The notes below the pieces were generated by a model. It did no database searches and was not told where the DNA came from. It worked only from the letters and a program-made list of their open reading frames with translations. DNA of 64,000 bases from NCBI GenBank assembly GCA_947500295.1, contig CANMRM010000004.1:185663-249662 (forward strand), given 5' to 3'. This document shows, piece by piece, positions 1 to 37,224 of the stretch. Every line of letters begins with the position of its first letter. The stretch's first letter is position 1. A program made the position numbers and the translations under genes. Source of the stretch: an uncultured Kordiimonas sp. Lineage in GTDB: Bacteria; Pseudomonadota; Alphaproteobacteria; Sphingomonadales; Kordiimonadaceae.

Positions 1-80
1 GAGTAAAGCCGCATAGCGCGGTGTTCAATAGATGACAAAGAGAGCCTAAATCGGCAGCAATCCAGAGAAAGGAACGGACC

Positions 81-350
81 ATGGATGCACTATATAATGC
101 CCTGCCACACGACAAGGAGCATATCGACGGCTACTACACGAAACTCGGAGAGTTCTATAATTCTCTGAGCGCATCGGAAAAGAAGATATTCCATGCCAAT
201 GCGAAGCAAGCGAAATCAAACGCCCCAGGAATTGAAGCCTTGTTCAGTGACCCAGGCCACAAAGCTGACTTGGAGCAGTATCTGAAAGACAAGGCGGGTC
301 TGCAGGACGTGCCTGAAGATGAAGACATGATGGACTCTGCATTTTTCTAG
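81..350 (+). CDS. hypothetical small acidic protein (89 aa)
   Basis: Intact ORF with an AAAGGAA Shine-Dalgarno-like motif about 6 nt upstream of the ATG. No Cys, no signal peptide, acidic C-terminus EDEDMMDSAFF. No family recognised. Confidence 0.45.
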   Translation: MDALYNALPHDKEHIDGYYTKLGEFYNSLSASEKKIFHANAKQAKSNAPGIEALFSDPGHKADLEQYLKDKAGLQDVPEDEDMMDSAFF

Positions 351-1594
351 GGAGCCAGATTGGGCTTTCCGTACCCCTGGTACAGGGACGGCAGACCAAG
401 AGGTTGACACAGTTCGCGTAGCGTTCGGGCTGCATAGTCCGAACGAGCGGCGGTTCTGTCCAGCGTGAGATAATCTCGATCTGTGCTCAGACGCGCCGCC
501 AGCAAACCTGTAACAATGGCGACGGAGTCGGAAGAACCCACTTGGGCCGCATACAATGGCCTGCCGTCCTGCGATGCAACTGTGCTGGCGATGGCTGTGC
601 CCGGGGCCAGGCAGGTGAGGCCGGGGCCGTAGCTGCCGATTGCCGAGAGATACAGGCCGTTTTCCCCACGCTTTACGGGGTCTTTGGGGGCAAAAACGAG
701 GTCGGTTTCCGTGGTTGGGCCACAGGCATCGCGTCCAAGCGCACTCACCGCAGCAACATTTTCAAGTGCTGCGGGATAGCCTACTGGTTCTGCGCCTGTA
801 TTGCCTGCCGCGGCAATACAATAGGTGCCAGTCATACGGGCTTCTTCAATGGCGGCGGCCTGTGCGTCCGACGCTTTCTCGCTGCTAAGACTGAGGTTGA
901 TAAGGTCAACACCCACGTTCGTTGCCAGGTGCCGGATTGCTTGCGCGACGTCATCGGCCTTTGCGCCGTGTGCGCCCGCCTCATAAACCCGAACTGAAGA
1001 GAGGGCAGCGCCGGGTGCGATCCCGGCGGGGTGGTCGTTATTATCCGGTCGCGCACCAATCAAACCAGCCATCATGGTTCCGTGATACGACACGTCCGCG
1101 CCGTCTGCGCTATGTTCGCCGTCAACGAAGGCACCCAAATCGGCAACATGGGAAAGATAGGGGTGGGGGCCCGCGCCTGTGTCAATCAGGCCAACAGCAA
1201 CGCCCTGACCGCGCCCGGGGTCATACGTCGTGATGCCCACGCTTTTATGCCACCAGCCAAGCGGTCCATCAAAAACCAGCGGTGGGCACTCAATCTCGAC
1301 CCGCCTATTAAATTTCTGACTTGCACCATACCATGTGCCGGACTGTGCCACCGCGGAAACATAGAGGGGTTTTTCTTCAGCTGGTGCAAACGTGAGGCTT
1401 GTTTCCCCAGCTGAATTTGCCATCCCGGCGTGTACATGCTGGGCACCTGTTTCAATATTTTTAACAACCAGAAAAACAAGAGCGCCCGCAAGAGGGAGAC
1501 CGGCGGAAGTCACGTATACATCAACACCGGACTGCTCGGGGTTTTGCGCGGATGCTCTCGGTTTTCCCAGGTGGTGCGAAAAATCATGTGGCAT
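347..1594 (-). CDS. S8 family (subtilisin-like) serine peptidase, no signal peptide
   Basis: Catalytic motifs in order: Asp GLIDTGAG, His SYHGTMMAGLIG, Asn AAAGNTG, Ser VGSSDSVAIVTG. About 110 aa N-terminal extra domain. N-terminus is polar, with no leader or TM segment. Start lies 21 nt downstream of the sensor kinase stop. Confidence 0.8.
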   Translation of the reverse strand: MPHDFSHHLGKPRASAQNPEQSGVDVYVTSAGLPLAGALVFLVVKNIETGAQHVHAGMANSAGETSLTFAPAEEKPLYVSAVAQSGTWYGASQKFNRRVEIECPPLVFDGPLGWWHKSVGITTYDPGRGQGVAVGLIDTGAGPHPYLSHVADLGAFVDGEHSADGADVSYHGTMMAGLIGARPDNNDHPAGIAPGAALSSVRVYEAGAHGAKADDVAQAIRHLATNVGVDLINLSLSSEKASDAQAAAIEEARMTGTYCIAAAGNTGAEPVGYPAALENVAAVSALGRDACGPTTETDLVFAPKDPVKRGENGLYLSAIGSYGPGLTCLAPGTAIASTVASQDGRPLYAAQVGSSDSVAIVTGLLAARLSTDRDYLTLDRTAARSDYAARTLRELCQPLGLPSLYQGYGKPNLAP

Positions 1595-1615
1595 CCCGGT
1601 GCTGGACCTTTGCTG

Positions 1616-4600
1616 CTATTTTTTTGGAATTACTATTGTGAAAATCGATCCGCCGTCTTCTGATGTCCGGTAATCGACCGTCCCCTTGAGTGCGCCGTGT
1701 ACAAGGTTGTGAACAATGTGCAGGCCAAGGCCCGTATTGCCCTGACCGCGTTTTGTGGTGAAGAAAGGGTCAAATATCTTGTTTTGATGGATTTCGGAAA
1801 TCCCGCACCCGTTGTCTGACACTGCGATGGTCACAGCATTTGGCGACTGTCTCGCCTCTACACTTATTTCCCCCGCTTCATTGGGTTCAAATGCATGAGT
1901 TACCGCATTTGTAACCAGGTTTGTGATGACCTGACTTAATGCGCCTGCATTGATCAGGAGCCGTATGTTTTCGTCTCCTCCAACCGATGACTGATGTCCT
2001 TTTTCCATCAACAAAGGTTTCACGCTGATCATGACATCCCGCAAATAGGGTACAAGCTGGATATCGGCGATTTGCTGGCTGCTCTGGTCAGCGGACACCA
2101 GCTTGAAGCTCTTGATCATGTCTGCAGCTTTTTGGGCATTTTTGAGGGTGAGGCGCCCAAGGTCTCCGCTCAGGTCCAGATATTGCTCGAGGTCCGATTT
2201 GGTGATTTTTTGAGCGTCAAACTTGTCTTTGATCTTTGTCGTTTCACTTTCGATTTGAGACGCGCCGCTGACAACAAGGCCGATCGGTGTATTCACCTCG
2301 TGCGCGACGCCAGCCACAAGCCCGCCGAGCGCCGCAAGTTTTTCGGACTGTATCAGCTTTCCCTGCGTTTCCTTCAGCTCGGTCATCGTCTGCTCAATGC
2401 GCGTGTTCCGTTCTGCGAGCTCTGTTTTTTGCCGTTCTATCTTGTGAGTCCGCTCCACTACCTGTTGTTCAAGGCGCCGCTGGCTGGCCTCCAGTACAGC
2501 AAGGCGGGCACGATAGATGGCAAACAGGACCAGCAGTGCCATGGCCGCTACGAGCGCCTGGAACCAAAGCGTCTGATAGAAGGCAGGTAATACCTCAAAG
2601 GTTACTTGACTGGGCGTGGGGCTGGACCGGCCGTTTTGGTCAAATACGTTCATCATCAGCGTGTAGGAACCAGGTGAAAGGTTGGTGTAGGTGGCAGAAC
2701 GCCGCGTGATGTCCGTATGGATCCAGTCACGGTCAAAACCCTGAAGCCGGTGGGCATAGGTATAGGATGCGGCATCTATCGGAGACAAACTTGCATATTC
2801 AACGGTGAAGTCCCGATCTTCCGGCGTAATTTCGATGGGGGCCACGGAAGAGCCCAACGCTTCGCTGTAGTCGTAGGCGTCCCGCCCACCGACTATCAAG
2901 CGTGTTATCGTCGGTGTCTGAAGTGCCTTTTGCCGCTCAAACATGGCGGGGGACACAATTGTCAGCCGCCGAACACCTGTAAAGACCAGTTCGTTGGTGC
3001 GCATGAGTTTAGCGCCCTTGTCGGGCACATTGAGGGGCATGTCCATACTGTCGTCAAACAACATTGACCGCCCGCTGTCTGGATCGTACGCCAGCACACC
3101 TTCGGACGTGGTGAACCACATCCGGCCTTCCTTATCTTCAAGAACAGTATTTGCGTTGGTTCCCCTGTAGTCGGTGCCGTCAAACGGGAAGATAAATCTG
3201 GGCTGGGAAGCAAAAGGCTCGGTGGTGTAGGCGATCTGTTCTCCTGCAATCCACAGCCGGCCAGCCTTGTCCATAGCCATGGCCCGCGCGCTTCGCATGC
3301 GATCCTGATTGTTATCTTCCGACATGCTCTGAATGCGTGTCAGTTCCCGCCTGTCAGGCGACAATTTGAATACGCCGGACCGCGTTCCCATCCAGATTGT
3401 TTTGTCGGCGCTCTCCAGCATATCGAGCACCGGGCCCAAGTCCTGAGGCGAGACGCCCGAAATCCCGGTGCCCACCGGTTGCGGTGTTTGTGTATCAGGA
3501 TCGATGGTCAGGATGCCGCGAGAGAACTCTGACGTCCAGATAGTGCCGCTGCTGTCCTGAAAAATGGACACCAAATTCCAGCCTTCTGTACCGGAAACCA
3601 GGCTCACCGTATCGGTATCGAGGTCATAGGTATATAGCCCGCGCCCGACAGTTGGAATCCAAACGCGGCCGCTGCGGTCCTGCATGGCAGAAAAAATCCA
3701 TACCGGTGGGCTGTCACCAGGAGGCAATTGCAGGCTTTTGTCCAATATAAGCTGCCCCCCGACACGCCTGAAGATTGCGGGCTTCTTGTCCCGACTTGTC
3801 AGCAACAAGCGTCCGTCAGCCAACTCAAGCAGCAACCGAACTTCTGAATTTGAAGAAAAAACACCACTTGCACCCGGGTCACTTTCGTAGACCCTGACAT
3901 CTGTATTGCGGGGGTTGGCGACATTGAGGCCAGCACCCCATGTGGGTATCCATACCAAGCCGTTGGCGTCCTGAATGATGCTGAAGGTATTGTTCGAACT
4001 CAAACTGCTGTCGCGTCCCGGAACATGTTCGATCCGTCTGACCGACTGCTCCCCCCAGTCCACCACCTCAACTCCAGCGTCACGGTATCCAACCCAGAGG
4101 TCGCCATTTTCGTCCTCCATAAGGCTAGTCACAAAATCCGCGGTCAGAGGGACAGGAGGGGCGTTTGGGGCAAAATGGGTCAGAACATTTGACCCAGCCG
4201 TTTTCTGCATCAAGCCAATGCCGTCTGTGCCCAGCCACAAGGTATCTTCCCGATCAAACAGCACGACGGTAACCCGATCAAGCGGCGCATTTGTTTCAAG
4301 AGAGAAAGCTTCGCGGGCTCCTTCGAAAGTGCGTGTGGCTGGGTCAAACCGCTGCAGGCTGCCACCGAGACATCCGACCCAGAGATTGCCGCCCCTGTCG
4401 ACATCCGCGGCCAGACAGAGATTGCTGCTCAGGCTACTTGGGTCGTTAGGGTCGTTGCGGTAGCGTTCGATCGTTTCCAGGTCCGGCAACAAGCGAACCA
4501 TGCCGTCCCCGAAAACCATGAACATCATGCTGCCGTCTGGCAATTCCTGGATGAACAGTGTTTGTCCGGCGAAGTAGGTCTCGGCTTCTTCCGGATCATT

Positions 4601-5017
4601 GCCAAATCGCAAGAATATATTGGTGTCCGGGTCATACATGGTCACGCCATTTGACTCGGTGCCGACCCACACACGATCCATCCGGTCGACAACCACGCTT
4701 CTGAGCCGGTTGCCACTCAGGGAATTTTCGTTGTCAGGGTCATGGACATATTGAATGAAACGGTATCCATCATATCGGAACAAACCGGCGTAAGTCGCAA
4801 CCCAGACGAATCCTTTGGAGTCACGCGCGACAGAAGAAAGTTCTTGCGATACGAGGCCCTGTTCAGCCCCAAACCGGTGAAATCGGAGCTGTGGGCTCAC
4901 CATTCCTTCGTTGGTTTGTGCAATCGCGGTTTGCCAGGTTAATACCGTGCACAAGGTTGCAAGCAACCCCATTAATGGCCAGCTGAACACGCCAGGTCTT
5001 CTCATTTGCCCCACCAT
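1616..5017 (-). CDS. sensor histidine kinase with large periplasmic beta-propeller (two-component regulator propeller repeats) and Y_Y_Y-like domain
   Basis: N-terminal signal/TM segment, then about 750 aa of repeated W(V/I)GT / LWVG propeller-type repeats. Second TM is LWFQALVAAMALLVLFAIY, followed by a coiled coil. H-box VAHEVNTPIG, and ATPase N/G boxes NLVTNAVTHAF, DNGCGI, GTGLGL. Alternative start at M5 (5005). Confidence 0.85.
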   Translation of the reverse strand: MVGQMRRPGVFSWPLMGLLATLCTVLTWQTAIAQTNEGMVSPQLRFHRFGAEQGLVSQELSSVARDSKGFVWVATYAGLFRYDGYRFIQYVHDPDNENSLSGNRLRSVVVDRMDRVWVGTESNGVTMYDPDTNIFLRFGNDPEEAETYFAGQTLFIQELPDGSMMFMVFGDGMVRLLPDLETIERYRNDPNDPSSLSSNLCLAADVDRGGNLWVGCLGGSLQRFDPATRTFEGAREAFSLETNAPLDRVTVVLFDREDTLWLGTDGIGLMQKTAGSNVLTHFAPNAPPVPLTADFVTSLMEDENGDLWVGYRDAGVEVVDWGEQSVRRIEHVPGRDSSLSSNNTFSIIQDANGLVWIPTWGAGLNVANPRNTDVRVYESDPGASGVFSSNSEVRLLLELADGRLLLTSRDKKPAIFRRVGGQLILDKSLQLPPGDSPPVWIFSAMQDRSGRVWIPTVGRGLYTYDLDTDTVSLVSGTEGWNLVSIFQDSSGTIWTSEFSRGILTIDPDTQTPQPVGTGISGVSPQDLGPVLDMLESADKTIWMGTRSGVFKLSPDRRELTRIQSMSEDNNQDRMRSARAMAMDKAGRLWIAGEQIAYTTEPFASQPRFIFPFDGTDYRGTNANTVLEDKEGRMWFTTSEGVLAYDPDSGRSMLFDDSMDMPLNVPDKGAKLMRTNELVFTGVRRLTIVSPAMFERQKALQTPTITRLIVGGRDAYDYSEALGSSVAPIEITPEDRDFTVEYASLSPIDAASYTYAHRLQGFDRDWIHTDITRRSATYTNLSPGSYTLMMNVFDQNGRSSPTPSQVTFEVLPAFYQTLWFQALVAAMALLVLFAIYRARLAVLEASQRRLEQQVVERTHKIERQKTELAERNTRIEQTMTELKETQGKLIQSEKLAALGGLVAGVAHEVNTPIGLVVSGASQIESETTKIKDKFDAQKITKSDLEQYLDLSGDLGRLTLKNAQKAADMIKSFKLVSADQSSQQIADIQLVPYLRDVMISVKPLLMEKGHQSSVGGDENIRLLINAGALSQVITNLVTNAVTHAFEPNEAGEISVEARQSPNAVTIAVSDNGCGISEIHQNKIFDPFFTTKRGQGNTGLGLHIVHNLVHGALKGTVDYRTSEDGGSIFTIVIPKK

Positions 5018-5063
5018 GATATAGTCCTGTCTATCGGCAATAACCTATTGATCATGCACGGGA

Positions 5064-6125
5064 ATGACCACAAAAAAACAACTTTCAGAGGAAATCGTCG
5101 AATTTTTGGCGTCTGCGGGTCTGTTGTCATCAATGGCGGATCATGTGGTCTCGCTTTTGCCGGGTCGACGCCTTGCAGCCCAAGTTGACCTTGGAGCCGG
5201 CGAGCTTTTGTTCGTGAAAAAACATGGTTTGGCGTCCAGCCCCGGCGACCTGTGGCTCGACACGTCAGAGGCTGGCGGGGCTGCGGCCTCCCTTTGCGGC
5301 AGACCCGAAACACTTTTTAATCAGGAGGGCTGGTTTGCTAACCGCTATACACACAATAGGGGCACACTAAAAAACCTGCCTTTGGCGAGGTTTACGCCCG
5401 AACTGGCGCGCGCCATTGGACAGTCTCTTGGCTCGTTTCATAACAGAAGCGCCAGCTGGCTTTCCGGCCTTGGTCATGCGCCGGACAAGAGCGCAGATCC
5501 GCAACAAAGCATCCAGCCGATGCAAGCTCTTTCACCAGCCAGTTATGCCGATATGCCTGGTCTGGACAGGGATATGTTTATCGCGGCAAGTCAGGCCTGC
5601 TCTAAAGGGTTAACCACGCTTGCTGACGGGCTGAATACTGTCTGCGCGGTACACGGCGATTTCCAGGCTGGTAATATTTTGATCAAAAACGACCGTGCTG
5701 ACGCTGTTTGTTTTGTTGATTGGGAGAATGCTGGGGTAGGGGACCCCTCATGGGATTTGGGTCACCTGTTCGCAACACTGTTGAAAAGATGGCTTTACAC
5801 GGTTGATGCTGGCTCCGGCTCGATAGGTGGCGCGATTTTGCAGCAAAAGGGGGAATGGCTCCGGCTGTCAGGTTGGTGGGGTCATTTTCTCAAGGCCTAT
5901 AATCAGGAACTGGCGATTGTCTGCAGTGCTAAAATCGATGAGCAACAGCTAGCACGTGTTGGAGGGCATGCTTTGATGCAGCAATGTAAAAATATACTGT
6001 ACACGCGTGGTCAGTATACGGCCCGGGAGGTTCTGCTGCTGGCATTGGCAAGACAACTGATTGCAGAACCATGCAGGTCAATGGAGCTTTTGCTGCCTTC
6101 TAAGAAAAATGGCGACCGCCAATGA
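5064..6125 (+). CDS. APH/CotS-like phosphotransferase (putative Ser/Thr or small-molecule kinase)
   Basis: Catalytic loop HGDFQAGNILI and metal-binding segment FVDWENAGVGDPSWDLGHL, typical of the aminoglycoside-phosphotransferase-fold kinase family. Stop overlaps the next ATG (ATGA). Confidence 0.75.
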   Translation: MTTKKQLSEEIVEFLASAGLLSSMADHVVSLLPGRRLAAQVDLGAGELLFVKKHGLASSPGDLWLDTSEAGGAAASLCGRPETLFNQEGWFANRYTHNRGTLKNLPLARFTPELARAIGQSLGSFHNRSASWLSGLGHAPDKSADPQQSIQPMQALSPASYADMPGLDRDMFIAASQACSKGLTTLADGLNTVCAVHGDFQAGNILIKNDRADAVCFVDWENAGVGDPSWDLGHLFATLLKRWLYTVDAGSGSIGGAILQQKGEWLRLSGWWGHFLKAYNQELAIVCSAKIDEQQLARVGGHALMQQCKNILYTRGQYTAREVLLLALARQLIAEPCRSMELLLPSKKNGDRQ

Positions 6126-7060
6126 GTGTACGCGACCTGGTCTCCCATATTGTTGATGACTTCCGCTTCGATCCGAATGCCGGTTGGATACATGCAAGAG
6201 CAGGCGGAGTTGCATCTGCCGATGAAGTTTCAAAATTGGTCACCTTCCTCTACAGATATTATTATCAAGGGCTGACGCACCCGGCCCGGTATCAGTCAGA
6301 TGCCGCTGAAGCTAAAACGATCAAAAGCCTCGAGAACAGAGATCTTGTGGCTCGCTTTGTGGCTGAGTTACCTGCGGCAGACTACAGCAGTGCGGGCTGG
6401 CGAATTGTTTCGAGGCAGAACAAGTACATATTGGTGGAGCGCAAGGGAATTCAGCTGACGCTGGCCGATACAGGACACACTGAAGGCGGCCAGATTGATG
6501 AGACTGTCTGCATTCGCATGCCATCAAGCAGACCGTACGCTTCTCCCGGGTTTTTCACAGGTTTTGGCTCACTGGGTCCGGCAGGCAAAGACGAAAAACT
6601 GGACAGGATTTATTTTAATGTTGATGTGAATTCCGCACCTGCGCTGTTCGGCTGGATATTGCGATGGGCCGATGCCAAGGCCTTGCCAGTCACAGTCAAG
6701 GCCATTAATGCTCCAGGAAATTATGACCGCAGAGACTGTATTGTGGCTTACTTCCCGCGCGCTCGCTTTCAGGACATTCGGGCCGTGCTGGGAGAGGAGG
6801 TTGCTGGGCTGGACTTATCATTCAAGCCTGAAGTCCCGGCCTTCACATGCAAAATGCATCGCGGTATCGCCTGGGCACAGGATCCTGGCTCTGATGGAGC
6901 TGGTCAAACAAGCTTCGGTATGCACCGGTGTTCAGTAATCGCCAACGGGCTGAGCCAGGACCGTGCGGCAGGCGCACGAGCTCTGCAGCTGGGCATCCTG
7001 CAACACTGGGAAAAGTCGGGTCTGAACTTGGACAGGCCCCATTTATCGCCTGTCCAATAA
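6122..7060 (+). CDS. HopA1-like (T3SS effector HopA1 family / LanY-like) protein, putative phospho-Ser/Thr lyase
   Basis: Translationally coupled to the kinase. The core RIYFNVDVNSAPALFGWILRW...PVTVKAINAPGNYDRRDCIVAYFPR and downstream SFGMHRC resemble, from memory, the conserved HopA1-family core. The ORF itself is solid; the family call needs an HMM check. Confidence 0.5.
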   Translation: MSVRDLVSHIVDDFRFDPNAGWIHARAGGVASADEVSKLVTFLYRYYYQGLTHPARYQSDAAEAKTIKSLENRDLVARFVAELPAADYSSAGWRIVSRQNKYILVERKGIQLTLADTGHTEGGQIDETVCIRMPSSRPYASPGFFTGFGSLGPAGKDEKLDRIYFNVDVNSAPALFGWILRWADAKALPVTVKAINAPGNYDRRDCIVAYFPRARFQDIRAVLGEEVAGLDLSFKPEVPAFTCKMHRGIAWAQDPGSDGAGQTSFGMHRCSVIANGLSQDRAAGARALQLGILQHWEKSGLNLDRPHLSPVQ

Positions 7061-7068
7061 AAAGCAGA

Positions 7069-9612
7069 CTATTCGTTCCAATCAACCGCTTCAAAGAAAC
7101 GGCAGGCCGCCTCGCACTGTCCCATCAGTTGCGGTGTAAGTTTGCCGATTGTATCCCAGTTATCGCCGCGAACATTATATTCAATGGATTGTGCCGCCTC
7201 GGAAAGATGATACGCGCCAATAACGCCGCAACTTCCAGCAATTGAATGGGCAGAATACCGGACCCTTTCAGGGTCCTTGCGGGCAACGGAGATTTCCAAT
7301 TCTCTGATAAAACGCGGGATATCGCGCATGAACATATCAACCAGCACGCGGGAGCGCGCATTGAGATCACCATAGATCTCAAGCAACTTGGTCAGGTCAA
7401 TGCCTGCCTTCTCGGCCTCTTCAATGATTGAAACTTTGCCGGTTTTCGACTTGAGAAGAGGATAATGTTCAAGCACCAACGCTTCATCGTGGCTGGCTTC
7501 CACCCTCCGGCACTCTCCGGGCAGCCATTTATCGAGAGCGCTGGCAAGCGTTGCGATATCAACAGGCTTGCTGACATAATCATCCATGCCAGCCTTGCGG
7601 CTCATCTCAATGTCTTCCGGCAGAAAGCTGGCAGAAAGCGCTATTACTGGCATCCTGTCATTGTTGCCGTTTTCATTTTCACGAAGTTTGCGAACAACGT
7701 CATACCCTTCAATGTCTGGCATGAAGCAATCAATAAAGGCCAGATGGAACATGCCAATGTCTTCAGTCAGTGCTCTAATGGCGTCTCGGCCATTTTCGAC
7801 GATACGCACCGAAATAGACAGATGCTCAAGCATTTTGCGCAGGACAAACTGATTTGTTCGGGAGTCATCCGCCACCAATACTTTGGCACCAGGAAAACGG
7901 ATGCGCGACAAGTTGGCTTGATTGAAGTTTACCTTGTGCGGACCGGACGTTGCGCCATCATGAAGCTCTTGTGATTTCCCAGGGCTGACCAGATTTTTAA
8001 CCCCGGAGATCAGAGCCTCCGACCGGATCACCTTCATGACTATCTGATCAACTTCATAGCCACGCAAGCGGGATATCAAGGACCGGCTGGAACGGCGGAT
8101 CATTACGCCCACAGGGATATCGGTCAGTCGCTCGCGTTCGCGAATTTGACGTAACCAATGGATACAGTGATGATGATCTACAGTTTCATCAATAAGAATG
8201 GCGTCTATCGGCTTCTTTTTTGCAAGTGCCGTAACCAGATTGTCCACGGCCTGCGACGCGTCGCTAACATGCTGAACCTTCGCGCGCTCGTTGTGCAGGA
8301 TCGCAGCCACGGTTTGCATGCTTTTGGTCGCGTCACCGATCAGCATAATTCTCTTGCTGTCCAGTGCGTCCGGGCTGCTGCTTTCATCAGGTTCGCCGTG
8401 AAGCGGGATGGAGAAACGGAAGGTCGAGCCGACATCATGCTCGCTTTCGACTTCGATGGTGCCGTGCATAAGTTCAACAAGCCTGCGGCTGATTGCCAAC
8501 CCCAACCCGGTTCCACCATATTTGCGGCTGCTATCGCTGCTTGCCTGCTCAAAAGGAATATAAAGCCGTGATTGTTGCTCGGCGGTCATGCCGATGCCGG
8601 TATCTTCGATCTCGAACGTCAACCGATGACCGTCTTCGTCTTGTTGCTCGCATGAAACCCGGACAATGATATGTCCCTGGTTTGTGAACTTGATGGCATT
8701 GCCTACGAGGTTAATCAAAACCTGAGAGACGCGCTTGGGGTCGCACTCTACAAGTTCTGGCGCGCCTGGTTTGACATGGACAATCAGTTCCACGTCTTTC
8801 AGCCAGGCACGTGAGGCCAGCTGGTCGACCGCACCGTGGACCATGTCAGCCAGATTGACCGGCTTTTCTGCTATCTGAAGTTTGCCGGCATCGATCTTCG
8901 AGAAGTCCAAAATGTCATCGATAATCTCGAGCAGGTAACCGGCGCTGTCCTGGCAAATTTTGATCAGGGAATGTTGATCTTCGTCTGGTTTGGTATTGGA
9001 CAGAAGTTCCAGGGTACCAAGGATGCCATGCATTGGAGTCCGGATTTCGTGGCTGACAGAGGCCAGGAACAGGGAGCGGGCGGCCGATTTGGCTTCAATG
9101 AACCGGCGGTGGCGCTCACTGCGCTCCAGATCCTGCATGTCAGCATAATTTCTAAGTGCGCCGATAACACTGGTGATCAACCGTTCTTGGGTAAGGTCGG
9201 TTTTCGAGCGATAGTCGTTAATGTCGTATTTCAGAACAACTTCGGCTTCAGGCGCCTGTCCTGGTTGGCCGGTACGCAGAATAATCCGTACCCGGCTGTT
9301 ACCCATTTCATTGCGAATCTTTTCAACAAGCTTCAGGCCGGAGTTGTCACTCTCCATCACGACATCCAGCAGAATGACCGCGATCTCGGGGATATCGGCG
9401 AGCATTTTTTCAGCCTCGGCGGCTGAAAAAGCGCTTAGCAAGTCTATGCGTGCCCCGCGAAAGCCAATGCTGTGCAGATTGAGCTTGGTCAGGGTGTGCA
9501 CTTCAGGTTCATCGTCAACGACGAGAACCTTCCAGTTCTCCGTTGGCGCATCGCCGGGCTCCGCAGGAAGTTCATCGTCCTGCGCGTCAGCAAACAAATA
9601 GTTATCCTGCAT
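7069..9612 (-). CDS. hybrid sensor histidine kinase/response regulator (REC-HisKA-HATPase-pseudoREC-REC-Hpt)
   Basis: N-terminal receiver KVLVVDDEPEV...LLDVVMESD. H-box SHEIRTPMHGILG. ATPase boxes LINLVGNAIKFT, DTGIGM, GGTGLGLAIS. Degenerate receiver-like segment, then a canonical receiver KVLVADDSRTNQ...FIDCFMPDIEG...SKP. C-terminal Hpt with AHSIAGSCG. No TM segment seen. Confidence 0.9.
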   Translation of the reverse strand: MQDNYLFADAQDDELPAEPGDAPTENWKVLVVDDEPEVHTLTKLNLHSIGFRGARIDLLSAFSAAEAEKMLADIPEIAVILLDVVMESDNSGLKLVEKIRNEMGNSRVRIILRTGQPGQAPEAEVVLKYDINDYRSKTDLTQERLITSVIGALRNYADMQDLERSERHRRFIEAKSAARSLFLASVSHEIRTPMHGILGTLELLSNTKPDEDQHSLIKICQDSAGYLLEIIDDILDFSKIDAGKLQIAEKPVNLADMVHGAVDQLASRAWLKDVELIVHVKPGAPELVECDPKRVSQVLINLVGNAIKFTNQGHIIVRVSCEQQDEDGHRLTFEIEDTGIGMTAEQQSRLYIPFEQASSDSSRKYGGTGLGLAISRRLVELMHGTIEVESEHDVGSTFRFSIPLHGEPDESSSPDALDSKRIMLIGDATKSMQTVAAILHNERAKVQHVSDASQAVDNLVTALAKKKPIDAILIDETVDHHHCIHWLRQIRERERLTDIPVGVMIRRSSRSLISRLRGYEVDQIVMKVIRSEALISGVKNLVSPGKSQELHDGATSGPHKVNFNQANLSRIRFPGAKVLVADDSRTNQFVLRKMLEHLSISVRIVENGRDAIRALTEDIGMFHLAFIDCFMPDIEGYDVVRKLRENENGNNDRMPVIALSASFLPEDIEMSRKAGMDDYVSKPVDIATLASALDKWLPGECRRVEASHDEALVLEHYPLLKSKTGKVSIIEEAEKAGIDLTKLLEIYGDLNARSRVLVDMFMRDIPRFIRELEISVARKDPERVRYSAHSIAGSCGVIGAYHLSEAAQSIEYNVRGDNWDTIGKLTPQLMGQCEAACRFFEAVDWNE

Positions 9613-9905
9613 TTACCCCTGATCCGGCTGAGTTACACATAAGCTTAGTTACCCTAATCGGGATACAACCATAAGGAAAGAAAGTTTCGCAACTTATATC
9701 GAAGGCTTTCGACATAGGCCAGCCCATTTTAATTTTCGTTGCACGACGCCTTCCTTACTTAGTGTCAGCTAGGACAGGCAACGATAGAGACAAGTGTTGT
9801 GCAGCACATTTTTAGTATGTTCAGCGCTCTAACTTATTGCGCCGAGTTGCTGCAATTCGCGTATAGATTGAGTGGGCGGATGATTGTTCGCTTAATGACC
9901 TGGTT

Positions 9906-10244
9906 TTAACTTTCGGTACAGTCCCGGTTTTGGTCAGAGGTCTTGAGCGTGATAATCCGTTCAGGATCCGGGCTAGATGTACTGATAACGATATCAGGGT
10001 TTGCTCGACAAGTTTTGCAGAGGGCGGGGCGCTTTCCAATGACATATTTGTCCCAGATATTCATCTTGGAGTAGTGGCCACATTGACGACATCTGACCCG
10101 TGGTAACTTTATTATAAACAGAATGAATATTGTGGCGGCATTGGCGAGCAGAACATACACAATAGTATGAGAGTCGGTATGCACTGTCAGGGGTATGGCG
10201 ATACCAAACAGAAGTACTCCTATTATTTTGTTCGCCAAGGTCAT
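9906..10244 (-). CDS. hypothetical small membrane protein with C-terminal zinc-ribbon-like CxxC...CxxC
   Basis: Two hydrophobic helices followed by CRQCGH...CKTCR. AT-rich codons (several ATA) are atypical for this window. No clear SD. Lies in an AT-rich gap. Confidence 0.35.
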   Translation of the reverse strand: MTLANKIIGVLLFGIAIPLTVHTDSHTIVYVLLANAATIFILFIIKLPRVRCRQCGHYSKMNIWDKYVIGKRPALCKTCRANPDIVISTSSPDPERIITLKTSDQNRDCTES

Positions 10245-10764
10245 ATGGGCTATAGCTGTTTTTCCGGCGGGTCAATGTTGCGTGTTGGTTCCAAGGCCTT
10301 TCCAGGGTCATCTGCTGTTCCATCCATTCAGCGCACGGACGGAGGCCTGCATGTTGATTTGCTAGCCTAGATCGCAATCGAAGTCGCGTATCAAATTGTA
10401 AAAAAGTGTCGCCTATTCGAAAAGGTTTGGCAGTTTTGTCGCGACATGGCCAGGCTGTAGACAAATCTGCCAAGAAGCGCTGTGCGTCACCTGTATTTGG
10501 CCAAAGCGTCGCATCGTATTTCTATCCAAACAGCTTGGTGTCGGTGTCGCTGTTTCTGGGGCGATATGGGAAATCATGGTTGCAGCCCGCAACAAGCTGC
10601 TCAGTTTTATGGTAATCATCAGGTTTGGGCTGTCTCGGTCCAAAGTGTCTTGATCAGGTAATATGTGTGAGAACAAATAGTAAACAAAAGGATGTAAGAT
10701 ACTGTAAAATATATAATATTAAAGGGATATGGGTTGGATTGAGGTTAAATTTCTTATTAGTATT

Positions 10765-10811
10765 TCCCATGAAATCCCATTGACCATAAGCTATTTCCCA
10801 TGATATCCCAT
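10765..10811. promoter_or_regulatory. candidate MraZ operator: four TCCCAT (= ATGGGA) boxes in two 10-bp-spaced pairs
   Basis: TCCCAT at 10765, 10775, 10796 and 10806, lying 88-134 nt upstream of the mraZ ATG. E. coli MraZ is known to bind TGGGN direct repeats with 10-bp periodicity upstream of mraZ. Confidence 0.5.
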
Positions 10812-10898
10812 GAAAGTTCGGATGACGATCCGGATGCTCGTGGTGTTTGTGCTCGTTGAGCAGCCTGCGGGGGGAGGAAAGCGGGGGCTTGTGGGACA

Positions 10899-11378
10899 AT
10901 GGCGTTATTCCTGTCCACATTTGAAAACAAGGTTGACAAGAAAGGGCGTGTTTCTGTCCCTGCGTCTTTTCGTACAGCCGTTGCTTCCAGCCATTTTCAA
11001 GGCGTTGCTGTCTACCGGCACCTGAGTTTGCCCTGCGTCGAAGGCGCTGATATCTCATTTTTGGAACAGTTGTCCGACCAACTCTATGAAGGGTTTGGCC
11101 CTTTCGATACGGACCAGTTGTCCGTTGCGACGTCGATACTGGCTGAGTCCAACCAGTTGGGCTTCGATTCTGAAGGCCGAATTCTACTGCCTGCCCCCAT
11201 GCGGGAATTTATGGGTGTCGAAGGTTTTGCAACCTTTGTTGGCCTCGGCCGTAAGTTTCAGATCTGGGCGCCTGAGGCCTTTGCCGAGCACAGAGCCCGA
11301 CAGCGTGACATTGCCGCCGACAAGATTACGGCTCTTCCGCCATTCGGCAAGCGCGATGGCGCAGGGGGACGGCCATGA
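10899..11378 (+). CDS. mraZ: division/cell wall cluster transcriptional regulator MraZ
   Basis: MALFLSTFENKVDKKGRVSVPASFR plus a second SpoVT/AbrB-like repeat DSEGRILLPAPMREF. First gene of the dcw cluster. Confidence 0.95.
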   Translation: MALFLSTFENKVDKKGRVSVPASFRTAVASSHFQGVAVYRHLSLPCVEGADISFLEQLSDQLYEGFGPFDTDQLSVATSILAESNQLGFDSEGRILLPAPMREFMGVEGFATFVGLGRKFQIWAPEAFAEHRARQRDIAADKITALPPFGKRDGAGGRP

Positions 11379-15938: not shown

Positions 15939-17003
15939 ATGTTGCAGCTACTGGCAGAACAGGGTGGTCTGTTTAACCTGTTTTCCTACCTGACCTTTCG
16001 AACGGGCGGGGCCGTGATAACAGCATTGATAATCTGTTTTCTTACAGGCCCGAGGATAATTAACTGGTTGAAGACAAAGCAGAAAAAAGGCCAGCCTATT
16101 CGTGAAGACGGACCGCAAAGCCACATAGTGGCCAAAGCCGGAACCCCAACCATGGGCGGCTTCATGATTTTGCTGGCCTTATGCATATCCACGCTTTTGT
16201 GGTCTGATCTGCGTAACCCCTATGTGTGGGCTGTGCTCTTTGTCACCCTCAGTTTTGGGGCCATTGGATTTGTGGACGATTATCTCAAAGTGACCAAGGC
16301 GTCGTCGGCAGGTGTGCCGGGGCGGCTCAAATTTTTGATTGAAATGGCTATCGGGCTGGCTGTTGCATGGTGGTTGGCAGCGCTTGTGGAGCCCACACTG
16401 GCCCTGCCGTTTTTTAAAGCTCTCTTGATAAACCTCGGGTTATTTTATCTGCCTTTCGCCTGTCTGGTTATTGTTTGGGCTGGTAACGCCGTGAACTTGA
16501 CCGATGGCCTGGACGGCCTCGCAATTGTTCCGGTGATGATTGCAGCCGCCGCATTTGGATTGATTGCCTACCTTGTCGGCAACACGGTTTACACCGAGTA
16601 TCTCGGTATTGCTTATGTTGCCGGCGCCGGTGAACTTGCAGTGCTTTGCGGCGCCATTATCGGCGCTGGCCTCGGGTTTCTTTGGTTCAACGCTCCGCCT
16701 GCCATGGTATTCATGGGGGATACAGGGTCCCTCGCGCTCGGTGGTGCGATAGGGACCATTGCAGTTGTCACCAAACATGAAATTGTCCTGGGCATCATTG
16801 GCGGGCTGTTTTGGCTTGAAACCATTTCTGTAATCGTGCAGGTGCTATCGTTCAAACTGACGGGCAAGCGCGTTTTCAGAATGGCGCCCCTGCATCACCA
16901 CTATGAACAAAAAGGCTGGGCAGAACCCACGATCGTAATCCGTTTCTGGATTATTGCGGTTGTGCTGGCACTGGTTGGCTTGGCAACGTTGAAACTGAGG
17001 TAG
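15939..17003 (+). CDS. mraY: phospho-N-acetylmuramoyl-pentapeptide transferase
   Basis: Polytopic membrane protein with [13 protein letters not shown] and [11 protein letters not shown] motifs. Confidence 0.95.
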
Positions 17004-32742: not shown

Positions 32743-33681
32743 TCAGTAACCCCTCTGTCGATCAAGGACATTTTCAGGTTGCATGCCAGCTTCAATCTTT
32801 TTGATGTTGTTGGCCACATACTCGGCAGCGGTTTTGGGCCGGGTTATGGATGCAATATGCGGTGTTACGATGATCTTGTCATGGGCCCAGAGGGGGCTGT
32901 CTTCTGTGAGTGGCTCTTCAACAAAAACATCAAGTGTGGCGGCGGAAAGATGACCGCTATCCAGCAGGTCAACAAGATCTTCAAGGTTGATGAGGCTACC
33001 CCGTCCGGCGTTGATGATGGAGGCGTATCTGGGCATTAACGCCATTGTTTCTCTGTTCAGCAGATTGGTGGTTTCCGGTGTTGACGGTAACAGACCTACC
33101 AAAATGTCGGTTCTTTTTAGGAAAGACTCAAACTGGTCTTTGCCACTGAAGTGTTCAATACCTTCTTCGGCGGCTTTGCCCGACCGCGACCATGCTGCAA
33201 TTTGATAGCCAAGAGGCTTGAGGGCCTGTGCGCAGTATTTACCGAGGGCTCCATATCCCAGAATGCCGATCCTTACATCAGAAGCGAGCGGGGGAAACAG
33301 ACGCCGCCATTCTCGTTTGCACTGAGCCGCCAGCATGCGCGGCATGTATCGCTGGTGCATCAATACCGTCATCAGCACAAACTCCGCCATGCCTTCCTTC
33401 AGGCCGTCGTCACTCATGCGGATGATCGGAATATCCTTGGGCAGGGACGGGTCGCGGGTAAGGTGATCGACCCCTGCACCAAGCGAAAAGATCGCCTTGA
33501 TGTTTGGATACTTGGCTACCAACCCCAGTTCCGGTTCCCAGGCAAAAAGATAGGCGGGGCCTTCGTCCGGGCTGCCCCAGTCGGGATAGTTCCTGAAGTC
33601 GACACCCGGGATTGCGGCCTCGAATGCTGGTTGCCAGATTTCCCAACCCGGCTCGTCGAGATAAAAATACAGCCGCGTCAT
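32743..33681 (-). CDS. D-2-hydroxyacid dehydrogenase (glyoxylate/hydroxypyruvate reductase A-like)
   Basis: 312 aa with the NAD motif GILGYGALG and catalytic-region NAGRG...D...H. 4-nt overlap with the upstream ORF. Confidence 0.8.
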   Translation of the reverse strand: MTRLYFYLDEPGWEIWQPAFEAAIPGVDFRNYPDWGSPDEGPAYLFAWEPELGLVAKYPNIKAIFSLGAGVDHLTRDPSLPKDIPIIRMSDDGLKEGMAEFVLMTVLMHQRYMPRMLAAQCKREWRRLFPPLASDVRIGILGYGALGKYCAQALKPLGYQIAAWSRSGKAAEEGIEHFSGKDQFESFLKRTDILVGLLPSTPETTNLLNRETMALMPRYASIINAGRGSLINLEDLVDLLDSGHLSAATLDVFVEEPLTEDSPLWAHDKIIVTPHIASITRPKTAAEYVANNIKKIEAGMQPENVLDRQRGY

Positions 33682-34364
33682 GGCACCTTCACAGCCAGTG
33701 TATCATGGTGACCGATAATCAACTCGCGGAGATAAAAACTCACGTCCGCCCGGTTTTTGAATCCGGCTGCGATCGCGGCAGCCTCGGCTTCTTCGGCTGT
33801 TACGTCAGCCGGAACCGCATACGCCTGCAGGCTCTCATAAAACCCGATTGTAAAGATATCGAAATCGGACCCGAATGAGACTTCAAATATGTCGTTCGGG
33901 CTTTGGCCAATGCGCCGGATGTAATCGTTTTCAATGACACGCTGGCGCATGAGGGCGGCATGGTTTCCTGCGCCGGCGTTGAACATCTCAATATGATAAA
34001 AGCCGCTGGCAGCATCTTTTGCTTTCAGGCCTTCCCAGCTTGTTTCGGACGATGCCTGAAAACTCAGCTCATAGTCTACAAGCGTGTCTGCAGCCCGCTC
34101 AAAAGCGGTCGCAGCTGCCTGACAGTCGTTGTCACATCCGGGCTTGTGTTTGCCCAGCAACATCAAGTCCCAGTGATTGCCCTGGCTATGTCTCATGATG
34201 ATGGGGCGCCCCATTTCAAAAGCGTCCCATTTTGTAGTGGTAACGAGCTCCAGCAGGGCCGGAAACTTGCCAGGCGCTGCGCGGAATTGTGTCACCCAAT
34301 AATCGTCGGCCACAACAGGCGTTGAGAGGGCGAAAAGCCCAAACGCACACAATAGCTTTTTCAC
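33678..34364 (-). CDS. hypothetical secreted protein (228 aa)
   Basis: Signal peptide MKKLLCAFGLFALSTPVVA-DD. No motif recognised. Tightly packed between the M14 gene and the dehydrogenase gene. Confidence 0.6.
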   Translation of the reverse strand: MKKLLCAFGLFALSTPVVADDYWVTQFRAAPGKFPALLELVTTTKWDAFEMGRPIIMRHSQGNHWDLMLLGKHKPGCDNDCQAAATAFERAADTLVDYELSFQASSETSWEGLKAKDAASGFYHIEMFNAGAGNHAALMRQRVIENDYIRRIGQSPNDIFEVSFGSDFDIFTIGFYESLQAYAVPADVTAEEAEAAAIAAGFKNRADVSFYLRELIIGHHDTLAVKVP

Positions 34365-34374
34365 CGTGCTCTCC

Positions 34375-37074: not shown

Positions 37075-37224
37075 GCTTTCCTCCCCAAAATTGAACACCG
37101 CTGAAAATACGGAACCCAAGTCAATAAAGTCAAAATGATCGCTTGAAAAGCCTTCAGAAATCACTTAACCGTCCGGGCAGTGCGAAAGTACGCCAGCTGA
37201 AGTAAAAAATGCTGCGAGTTTCGC

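Follow-up and report, generated by a model that had tools for sequence, protein, structure and literature searches.

The first 9.6 kb of a 64,000-nucleotide (nt) stretch of DNA from an uncultured Kordiimonas sp. (contig CANMRM010000004.1, positions 185,663 to 249,662 of the forward strand; the whole stretch is called the window below) is probably a biosynthetic gene cluster for a peptide made on the ribosome and modified after translation (RiPP), belonging to an undescribed family, with a two-kinase phosphorelay embedded in it. The cluster, or cassette, consists of seven genes. These are a B12-binding radical S-adenosylmethionine (rSAM) C-methyltransferase gene, an open reading frame (ORF) of 89 amino acids (aa), and the genes of a subtilisin-like S8 protease, a beta-propeller sensor kinase, an APH-fold kinase, a HopA1-fold lyase and a soluble hybrid kinase (Table 1). 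The evidence consists of this gene set and its linkage across genomes, enzyme families with intact catalytic residues, the homology of the leader to that of a distant precursor, and the pattern of selection in the precursor core. We rated the cassette as a new RiPP family with a known type of dehydratase, an unusual conserved core and an embedded phosphorelay.

Conserved linkage of the seven genes

The genes for rSAM, 89-aa ORF, S8, propeller kinase, APH, HopA1 and hybrid kinase were found in the same order and orientation in nine lineages, i.e., the window (six genes and a stub of the seventh) and the loci L001, L003, L004/L008, L005, L006, L009, L098 and L099. The first-pass annotation, which was made from the letters of the window, had proposed that these genes form one functional unit and had named scattered genes in relatives as the finding that would refute it. 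The opposite was found, namely a linked cassette together with an empty site in island-free relatives. The arrangement was kept while the identity of HopA1 to that of the window fell from 78% to 33%, and the cassette occupied at least five distinct genomic neighbourhoods. In L001 and L003, and presumably in the window, the flanks were a DUF5117/DUF4953 gene and mraZ. The flanks of L004 were an OEP gene and an ECF-sigma/FecR/TonB receptor group, those of L005 were EPSP synthase/DCD and cytochrome b/TonB receptor, and those of L006 were a solute-binding protein and TonB receptor/sulfotransferase. The cassette was rare. Only about a dozen close relatives of HopA1 were found among 5.8 billion clustered proteins, and further scans gave just two more 7-gene loci.

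The genes might also be unrelated accessory genes that are merely adjacent. No RNA run contained the region and the strands are mixed, both of which would suit such a chance neighbourhood, but it is highly improbable given the identical order and orientation in nine lineages down to 33% protein identity in varied contexts. Moreover, the intergenic gaps are all only 4-65 nt, and the divergent region between the two inner operons is conserved.

The first-pass annotation had described a six-gene block. The linkage stood, but the count did not, for the block has seven genes and the rSAM gene is cut by the left edge of the window. Nucleotides 2-16 of the window translate to SKAA*, the same as the C-terminus of the L001 rSAM (633 aa). 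A look-up of the window's HopA1 protein gave no record, and L001, with a HopA1 that is 78% identical, and the public DNA run X1 were used as stand-ins for the DNA upstream of the window; in X1, a contig of a strain with about 96% identity runs 1.6 kb upstream of window position 1. The rSAM gene sat just upstream of the 89-aa ORF in every relative whose contig was long enough, and in the window the gap between the two is 64 nt. In the relatives it lay on the + strand and encoded a B12-binding protein of 633-640 aa, which matched TIGR03975 ("RiPP maturation radical SAM C-methyltransferase") over its full length with 516-521 bits against a cutoff of 282. The identity of the L001 rSAM to those of the other loci ranged from 93 to 71%.

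Kinase/lyase pair and protease

The APH and HopA1 genes appear to encode a Ser/Thr dehydratase of the LxmK/LxmY type with intact catalytic residues. The HopA1 profile matched LxmY, the lyase of lexapeptide LxmKY (PDB 9dk1_B), with an E of 4.6e-16, and the RxxxSPGFF, K...RRD...Y and FGxHR blocks were aligned, whereas the effector HopA1 (4rsx) scored only 2e-5 with the same profile. The lyase residues K193, R203 and Y210 were invariant, with the same spacing as K219, R229 and Y236 of CaoY. In the OspF-family lyase SpvC, the residues that correspond to these three of CaoY belong to the active site, and the CaoY study used mutagenesis to identify residues critical for catalysis (PMC9486802). The best NCBIfam match of the kinase was LxmK (E 3e-11), and its K52, H197-G-D199, N204 and D219-W were invariant. 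Previous studies indicated that LxmKY is a kinase/lyase heterodimer (PMC12141560), that 96% of HopA1-domain proteins are encoded beside a phosphotransferase, and that the pair marks diverse RiPP clusters (PMC8153245).

The S8 protease was present in all cassette loci and also in the Frankiaceae locus L010 described below. Its residues D138, H171, N265 and S355, including the catalytic triad, were invariant in six homologues, and it showed weak NCBIfam matches to mycosin, QhpE and PatA/G-type proteases. No signal peptide was found in it. The hydrophobic stretch 24-45 is not a membrane anchor, because it bears Arg/His in the homologues, and it resembles a pair of beta-sandwich strands. We propose the S8 protein as a cytoplasmic leader peptidase with an N-terminal beta-sandwich-like domain.

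The probable 89-aa precursor

The 89-aa ORF is likely the substrate of the cassette, as judged from its sequence and position. It is a short gene beside modifying enzymes and can be divided into a leader and a core, as expected of a RiPP precursor. The family was small: a word search gave 10 clusters among 5.8e9 proteins, all of 88-89 aa, and scoring every one of 1.84 billion proteins gave 3 representatives at 50% identity. Residues 1-77 aligned with the peptide of the Frankiaceae locus (hhalign probability 97.4%, E 9e-12), and the alignment stopped where the C-termini diverge.

The C-terminus of the family reads ...V-P-x-x-x-D-x-M-D-[S/T]-[A/G/S/P]-F-F, with one member, P0030, ending in D-S-F-F. 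V77, P78, D82, M84, D85, F88 and F89 were invariant, and position 86 was Ser in 6/11 and Thr in 5/11 members and nothing else. The Ser86 codons were TCT, TCG and AGC and thus belonged to both the TCN and the AGC families. For codons 76-89, the synonymous difference rate per codon pair was 0.31 compared with 0.34-0.38 in the remaining gene, and the non-synonymous rate was 0.14 compared with 0.21-0.28, i.e., half. Since the non-synonymous rate was low at a normal synonymous rate, the tail is translated and is the most constrained part of the precursor.

The first-pass annotation had described the small ORF as acidic and free of Cys, which agreed with our analysis, and had set it aside for that lack of Cys. 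This second step was not upheld, in view of the leader homology and the constrained tail with Ser/Thr86. Cys was absent from the precursor in 10/11 family members, and the lone Cys (L005) was at a variable position. Accordingly, the likeness to a lanthipeptide locus that had been seen in the gene inventory was right at the enzyme level, given the LxmY and LxmK matches, but wrong for the lanthipeptide class, as Cys and a cyclase are missing. A class V lanthipeptide (lanthidin) cluster would account for the LanK-like and LanY-like genes and the protease. It is hardly credible, since the absence of Cys refutes thioether formation and the cassette lacks LanX (a cyclase that would be a second APH-fold protein), LanC and an HFCD decarboxylase.

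Loci with the chemical core

Three further loci carried parts of the cassette. L094 contained rSAM, two tandem 52-aa precursors, S8, APH and HopA1, where the contig stops, and had no propeller kinase between S8 and APH. Its tandem precursors (7579-8061) had short leaders and ended in ...LMDSAFF and ...VMDTPFF, i.e., one with Ser and one with Thr. L092 contained rSAM, then a 57-aa precursor and then a propeller kinase with 48% identity to that of the window.

The third locus, L010, came from a Frankiaceae metagenome-assembled genome (MAG; DASZER010000057.1, 5050-14324) and contained S8, rSAM, a 96-aa peptide, APH and HopA1, followed by an HFCD-type flavoprotein, a methyltransferase and a PhyH dioxygenase. 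The rSAM was 43% identical and matched TIGR03975 at 509 bits, and the S8 was 39% identical. The core of its peptide had 13 residues, SITSVVVTVAVHC, with the S1/T8/H12/C13 pattern of thioamitide cores (numbered as in PMC8153245). The peptide also matched the NCBIfam model "thioviridamide family RiPP peptide" with E 1.1e-7, which is below the cutoff. No YcaO was found among the ORFs scanned in L010. On these features, the cluster may be a C-methylated relative of the thioamitides. No second actinobacterial locus appeared in the further scans.

Taken from gene content, rSAM, precursor, S8, kinase and lyase appear to be a chemical core common to two phyla, to which the sensor kinases seem to be a recurrent proteobacterial addition. 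The association with rSAM and S8 is specific to this HopA1 subfamily, because the contexts of wider HopA1 relatives differ: the cluster around P0017 was of the APH-HopA1-LanC kind, and the surroundings of P0013 were unrelated.

These loci also bear on whether the pair modifies a protein rather than a peptide. A pair acting like the OspF/HopAI1 effectors would have a signalling protein as its target, perhaps one of the two kinases, and would alter it irreversibly, and the small ORF would play no part in this. The HopA1 fold is indeed common to a type III effector, and two signalling proteins are encoded alongside, but this explanation is very unlikely. The same pair occurred with the same precursor, rSAM and S8 in L094 and L010, which lack the propeller kinase; its nearest solved relative is the RiPP lyase LxmY and not the effector; and the pair is a mark of RiPP clusters (PMC8153245).

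Proposed pathway

In the proposed pathway, the first 75 or so residues of the 89-aa precursor would be a helical leader, followed by a short, acidic core at the C-terminus with the ending ...M-D-[S/T]-x-F-F. The APH-fold kinase would phosphorylate Ser/Thr86, and the HopA1-fold lyase would eliminate the phosphate to give dehydroalanine or dehydrobutyrine. The B12 radical-SAM enzyme would add at least one C-methyl group to the tail, for which Phe88, Phe89, Met84, Val77 or the dehydro residue are candidates. The cytoplasmic S8 protease would then remove the leader. Judged from these enzymes, the cassette would yield a peptide that is dehydrated and methylated but has no thioether rings. The modification site, methylation target, cleavage site, export, and the signal and output of the kinases are all inferred.

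If the cut were made directly before residue 86, as is supposed for the homologous thioamitide-like precursor, hydrolysis of the dehydro residue thus exposed would leave the tripeptide x-Phe-Phe with an alpha-keto-acyl cap. In thioamitides, the first dehydroalanine becomes pyruvyl after leader removal, and an S1T mutant gave 2-oxobutyryl (PMC8153245). An alpha-keto-acyl-x-Phe-Phe is possible because this first core Ser of thioamitides becomes pyruvyl and the first core Ser of the L010 peptide is at the corresponding position. By this analogy we name it as a speculative product, with the chances clearly against it.

Several points weigh against the reading of the cassette as a RiPP cluster with an embedded phosphorelay. 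The kinase reached 43 bits against a cutoff of 315 for the LxmK equivalog, which is far below. AlphaFold2 predicted residues 2-71 to be helical and the tail at 72-89 to be unstructured, with low confidence (predicted local distance difference test, pLDDT, 54). The leader fits no known leader family, and neither an NHLP nor a Nif11 leader was matched in Pfam/NCBIfam even at E up to 10. The cassette contained no exporter, immunity gene or DNA-binding regulator in the Pfam and NCBIfam scans, and no RNA or protein data for the region were found, with none of the RNA runs containing it. The propeller kinase is absent from L094 and L010, and therefore the sensor kinases are dispensable for the chemistry. 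Finally, the 89-aa protein has a fixed length and 63-97% identity overall, with a core more conserved than the leader. Typical antimicrobial RiPPs are not conserved in this way, and the pattern would also suit a small protein that undergoes modification but no cleavage.

On this rival reading, the 89-aa protein would not be divided into leader and core. It would instead be a folded protein that retains its modified C-terminal tail, or a reusable scaffold at whose C-terminus a small molecule or cofactor is assembled and afterwards clipped off, as for mycofactocin, pyrroloquinoline quinone (PQQ) and pearlins. The fixed length of 88-89 aa and the identity of 63-97% along the entire protein would fit, as would the lack of an exporter, the conservation of the core across genera, and the position of all invariant modification candidates at the extreme C-terminus. 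We regard this as quite unlikely, since the leaders of L094 and P0030 are shortened to 52-57 aa and retain only the C-terminal half and the core, which makes the N-terminal half dispensable. In addition, the core of the homologous Frankiaceae peptide is of the classical thioamitide type, and AlphaFold2 gave no confident fold.

Sensor kinases and the putative divergent control region

Within the favoured RiPP reading, the two kinases would form a phosphorelay, for which a kinase core, receiver Asp residues and an Hpt His were all found. The propeller kinase had one transmembrane segment at about 813-844, an N-terminal signal-like segment, HATPase_c and a GVAHEVNTPIG H-box. It contained no receiver, and the hybrid kinase contained no sensor domain and begins with a receiver. 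In the hybrid kinase, D83 of REC1 with D33/D34/T114/K137, H188, D628/K682 of REC3 and H789 of Hpt were invariant, and the middle receiver was degenerate. The first-pass description of the hybrid kinase as cytoplasmic, with three receiver stretches and an Hpt, agreed with the domains found and with the lack of a hydrophobic segment. So did the statement that the block encodes no DNA-binding response regulator: no DNA-binding domain was found in the six ORFs by Pfam and NCBIfam, and no response regulator with an output domain occurred in the cassette or consistently adjacent to it in the loci of the relatives. From the domain composition, the simplest relay would run from the propeller kinase to REC1, with autophosphorylation of the hybrid kinase passed on to REC3 and Hpt and then to an unlinked regulator. 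The periplasmic propeller kinase would thus act as phosphodonor for the receiver at the N-terminus of the hybrid kinase, and an unlinked response regulator would be fed by the Hpt. The relay would either control the cluster or sense its product.

The stretch that separates the kinase-S8 operon from the APH-HopA1 operon was analyzed in a seven-locus alignment. It contained the conserved element TGATATAGT (5017-5025, + strand), which is extended -10-like with the consensus TGnTATAnT, and a second conserved element, AACCTATTGA (5042-5051). T5017, G5018, T5020, T5022, A5023 and the TATTGA block were invariant even at 33-54% protein identity, and AACCTATTGA occurred once in the window compared with 0.07 expected. 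The generic promoter and terminator scans gave 10 and 13 sites compared with 7.3 and 11.9 expected, which was not above chance. For the distance between the starts of the propeller kinase and APH genes, both values of the first-pass annotation held, 46 nt (5018-5063) or 58 nt from M5. The latter is better: the propeller kinase probably starts at M5 (nt 5005), because the ATG at 5017 was not conserved in L005/L006 and M5 was. Co-regulation from these promoters in a "sensing-controlled" cassette, as suggested in the first-pass annotation, is kept here at the level of inference.

A conserved block, GTTAACCCTATTGAAAC...GGTAACC...GTTAACCATAAA, was observed beyond the window in L001 (1900-1990) and its homologues, upstream of the rSAM gene. 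It contains three G(T/G)TAACC repeats and resembles the AACCTATTGA box of the kinase/APH spacer, and it could be a candidate site for a shared regulator. A shared operator was also sought in these two regions. TTAACCCTATTGAAAC resembles ATAACCTATTGATCA, but with a 1-nt indel, and the motif was not kept in all loci; it was left as a weak lead.

The position of the kinases suggests a refinement of the RiPP reading, in which the exported mature peptide acts as an autoinducer that is sensed by the propeller kinase and relayed via the hybrid kinase. In nine lineages both kinases are part of the cassette, and they show the highest conservation of all its proteins; the S8 gene is directly downstream of the propeller kinase gene. 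Furthermore, the propeller kinase is found beside the precursor once more in L092, a distant locus, and conservation is higher in the core than in the leader, which is what a ligand with a fixed receptor should show. The divergent control region is conserved as well. Nevertheless, such a peptide signal is on the whole unlikely, though the most plausible of the alternatives considered here. The cassette has no exporter, its S8 no signal peptide and its relay no response regulator with an output domain, and L094 and L010 manage without the propeller kinase. To our knowledge, Reg_prop domains are known for the sensing of glycans and not of peptides, which also counts against it. The complete version of the idea is less likely again. 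It would be a self-contained RiPP autoinducer cassette of marine Alphaproteobacteria, whose dehydrated and C-methylated peptide, possibly alpha-keto-acyl-x-Phe-Phe, is sensed by the double-propeller kinase.

If true, the peptide-signal reading would make the cassette much more interesting, as a RiPP autoinducer with a dedicated non-canonical receptor in a Gram-negative bacterium. A core more conserved than the leader is the reverse of what is seen in antibiotic RiPPs and points to a fixed partner, which may be a receptor, an enzyme or a metal. The two embedded kinases are an obvious candidate partner for the product. As the cassette is small enough to be expressed whole and cultured Kordiimonas relatives exist, the product and its link to the kinases would be directly testable.

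Comparison with known systems

Two RiPP chemistries that are each known are joined in the cassette: dehydration of the LanK/LanY type and C-methylation by a TIGR03975 B12 radical-SAM enzyme. In the searchable literature, no description was found of a HopA1/kinase pair with a B12 rSAM, nor of the precursor family. As with LxmK/LxmY and CaoK/CaoY of lexapeptide and cacaoidin, a gene for an APH-fold kinase is directly followed by a gene for a HopA1-fold lyase, and the catalytic Lys/Arg/Tyr are kept with the spacing of CaoY. Unlike in class V lanthipeptides, there is no substrate Cys, no LanX and no HFCD, and the host is an alphaproteobacterium and not an actinobacterium.

The thioamitides (thioviridamide, thiostreptamide S4) have the same dehydratase pair (TsaC/TsaD), and the leader of the window precursor is homologous to that of the thioamitide-like Frankiaceae precursor. 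The cassette has a B12 rSAM and an S8 protease, whereas thioamitide clusters carry the C1A protease TsaK, whose role in leader cleavage was not established (PMC8153245). YcaO/TfuA, HFCD, PhyH and an N-methyltransferase are absent from the cassette. In addition, the core in the window, DVPEDEDMMDSAFF, is unlike that of thioamitides, with 14 acidic residues, no Cys/His and no S1...T/S8...H12-C13 pattern.

The TIGR03975-type B12 radical-SAM C-methyltransferase is shared with the proteusins (polytheonamide PoyB/PoyC) and bottromycin. In bottromycin, enzymes of this type methylate Phe at the beta position, and in polytheonamide they form the t-butyl cap. In polytheonamide, Thr dehydration, B12-rSAM C-methylation and leader proteolysis together give an alpha-keto-acyl N-cap. 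The cassette differs from the proteusins in having no NHLP/Nif11 leader, in a tiny conserved core, and in dehydration by a kinase/lyase and not by a LanM-type domain. Proteusin clusters are also marked by a radical-SAM epimerase, and no second radical-SAM gene was present in any locus.

For the sensor kinases, the autoinduction modules LanRK of lantibiotics (e.g., NisRK) are a known case of such kinases in a RiPP cluster. Like these, the cassette has sensor kinase genes inside the cluster and divergent from biosynthetic genes. Unlike these, it has no DNA-binding response regulator but a large periplasmic double propeller and a second, soluble REC-HK-REC-REC-Hpt protein. With PQQ and mycofactocin, it shares a core more conserved than the leader, candidate modification sites at the C-terminus, and a radical-SAM gene and a peptidase gene by a small peptide gene. 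It differs from them in a B12 and not a SPASM radical-SAM enzyme, the presence of the kinase/lyase pair, the absence of dependent oxidoreductase genes nearby, and its great rarity.

Genomic island and its borders

The cassette was present or absent between conserved flanks in close relatives, as is typical of a genomic island. The closest RsmH relatives belonged to Kordiimonadaceae and Kordiimonas, with 67-73% identity, and among the 80 loci fetched around rsmH none carried the cassette upstream of mraZ. The first-pass annotation had asked whether related genomes have mraZ next to other genes, and this was the case in L011-L013, the three nearest. At this empty site, about 380 nt separate the end of the DUF4953 gene from mraZ, compared with 12,987 nt between the same genes in L001 and L003. 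The identity of MraZ to that of the window was 92% in L011 and L012 and 76% in L013.

The cassette had been thought to abut the dcw cluster directly, which was not confirmed. DNA homology to the island-free L011/L012 restarts only at about 10760, and the inserted DNA thus includes the 1.15-kb spacer at 9613-10760, with mraZ starting at 10899. On the right, the island ends somewhere between 10245 and about 10760. The GC content of the spacer was 46-47% compared with 52-56% around it. The spacer holds orf112 (9906-10244, - strand), which encodes 112 aa with two hydrophobic segments and a CxxC...CxxC motif, matched no Pfam family, and was conserved only in L001/L003 (76-78% aa identity). As marks of mobility, no integrase/transposase domain and no tRNA were found, and the GC content of the cassette (52-56%) was that of its neighbours; the left junction lies outside the window. 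The approximately 140 nt upstream of mraZ (10760-10898) showed about 79% DNA identity to island-free Kordiimonadaceae relatives. This segment is presumably the promoter or leader of mraZ and sets the right limit of the insertion.

A TonB-dependent receptor was considered as an eighth component, as one such gene neighbours the hybrid kinase in each of L004, L005 and L006, but these receptors are not orthologous. Their identity was at most 26% in one pair and almost none otherwise, and none was found near the island of the window. The position is probably a coincidence in receptor-rich genomes. In L098 (JAAHTG010000105.1), HopA1 matches were found in two overlapping reading frames at about 16451-16472, the mark of a frameshift or of misassembly in this MAG.

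Gene inventory of the window

The inventory of six ORFs was based on the ORF listing and on Pfam and NCBIfam domain scans, and the positions and domains of the first-pass annotation were reproduced (Table 1). The precursor and S8 stops overlap by 4 nt, and 21 nt on one strand separate the propeller kinase stop from the S8 start. The APH gene runs into the HopA1 gene with an ATGA overlap of stop and start, and 8 nt lie between the stops of HopA1 and the hybrid kinase.

Table 1. Features of the cassette and the adjoining inserted DNA in the window, with the identity of the encoded proteins in the related loci to those of the window
Feature	Position (nt)	Strand	Remarks	Identity to window
Last codons and stop of B12-binding radical-SAM C-methyltransferase gene	1..16	+	rest beyond window edge	
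Likely precursor peptide gene, 89 aa	81-350	+	no Pfam/NCBIfam family, no Cys, isoelectric point (pI) 4.7	97 to 63%
Putative leader, ~residues 1-75	81-305	+		
Putative core, ~residues 76-89	306-347	+	DVPEDEDMMDSAFF	
Candidate dehydration site Ser86	336-338	+	within precursor core	
Subtilisin-like S8 protease, 415 aa	347-1594	-	Peptidase_S8, E 2e-28	89 to 55%
Double beta-propeller sensor histidine kinase, 1133 aa	1616-5017	-	Reg_prop + Y_Y_Y + HATPase_c	94 to 54%, all nine 7-gene loci
Putative divergent control region, kinase-S8 operon vs APH-HopA1 operon	5006..5063	unstranded	7-locus alignment	
Predicted LanK/LxmK-type peptide Ser/Thr kinase, 353 aa	5064-6125	+	Pfam APH, E 1.7e-12	78 to 31%
Predicted LanY/LxmY-type phospho-Ser/Thr lyase, 312 aa	6122-7060	+	HopA1 PF17914, E 2.9e-29	78 to 33%
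Soluble hybrid kinase, 847 aa	7069-9612	-	REC - HisKA - HATPase - degenerate REC - REC - Hpt	96 to 60%, highest conservation in cassette
Low-GC spacer of inserted DNA	9613..10760	unstranded	holds orf112 (9906-10244, -)	

The first 9.6 kb had also been singled out as the non-housekeeping block of the window, with which our analysis agreed. The remainder consists mostly of housekeeping genes, i.e., dcw genes, pgsA, uvrC, nadA/C, glyS, ppdK and ftsH. Neither Rfam families nor tRNA were found across the entire window. Among the genes sampled elsewhere in the window, only two others were poorly annotated. One is a 929-aa ORF (33678-37164, - strand), whose sole recognised domain is an M14 zinc carboxypeptidase at residues 95-271, and the other is a 228-aa ORF without a family match, directly downstream on the - strand.

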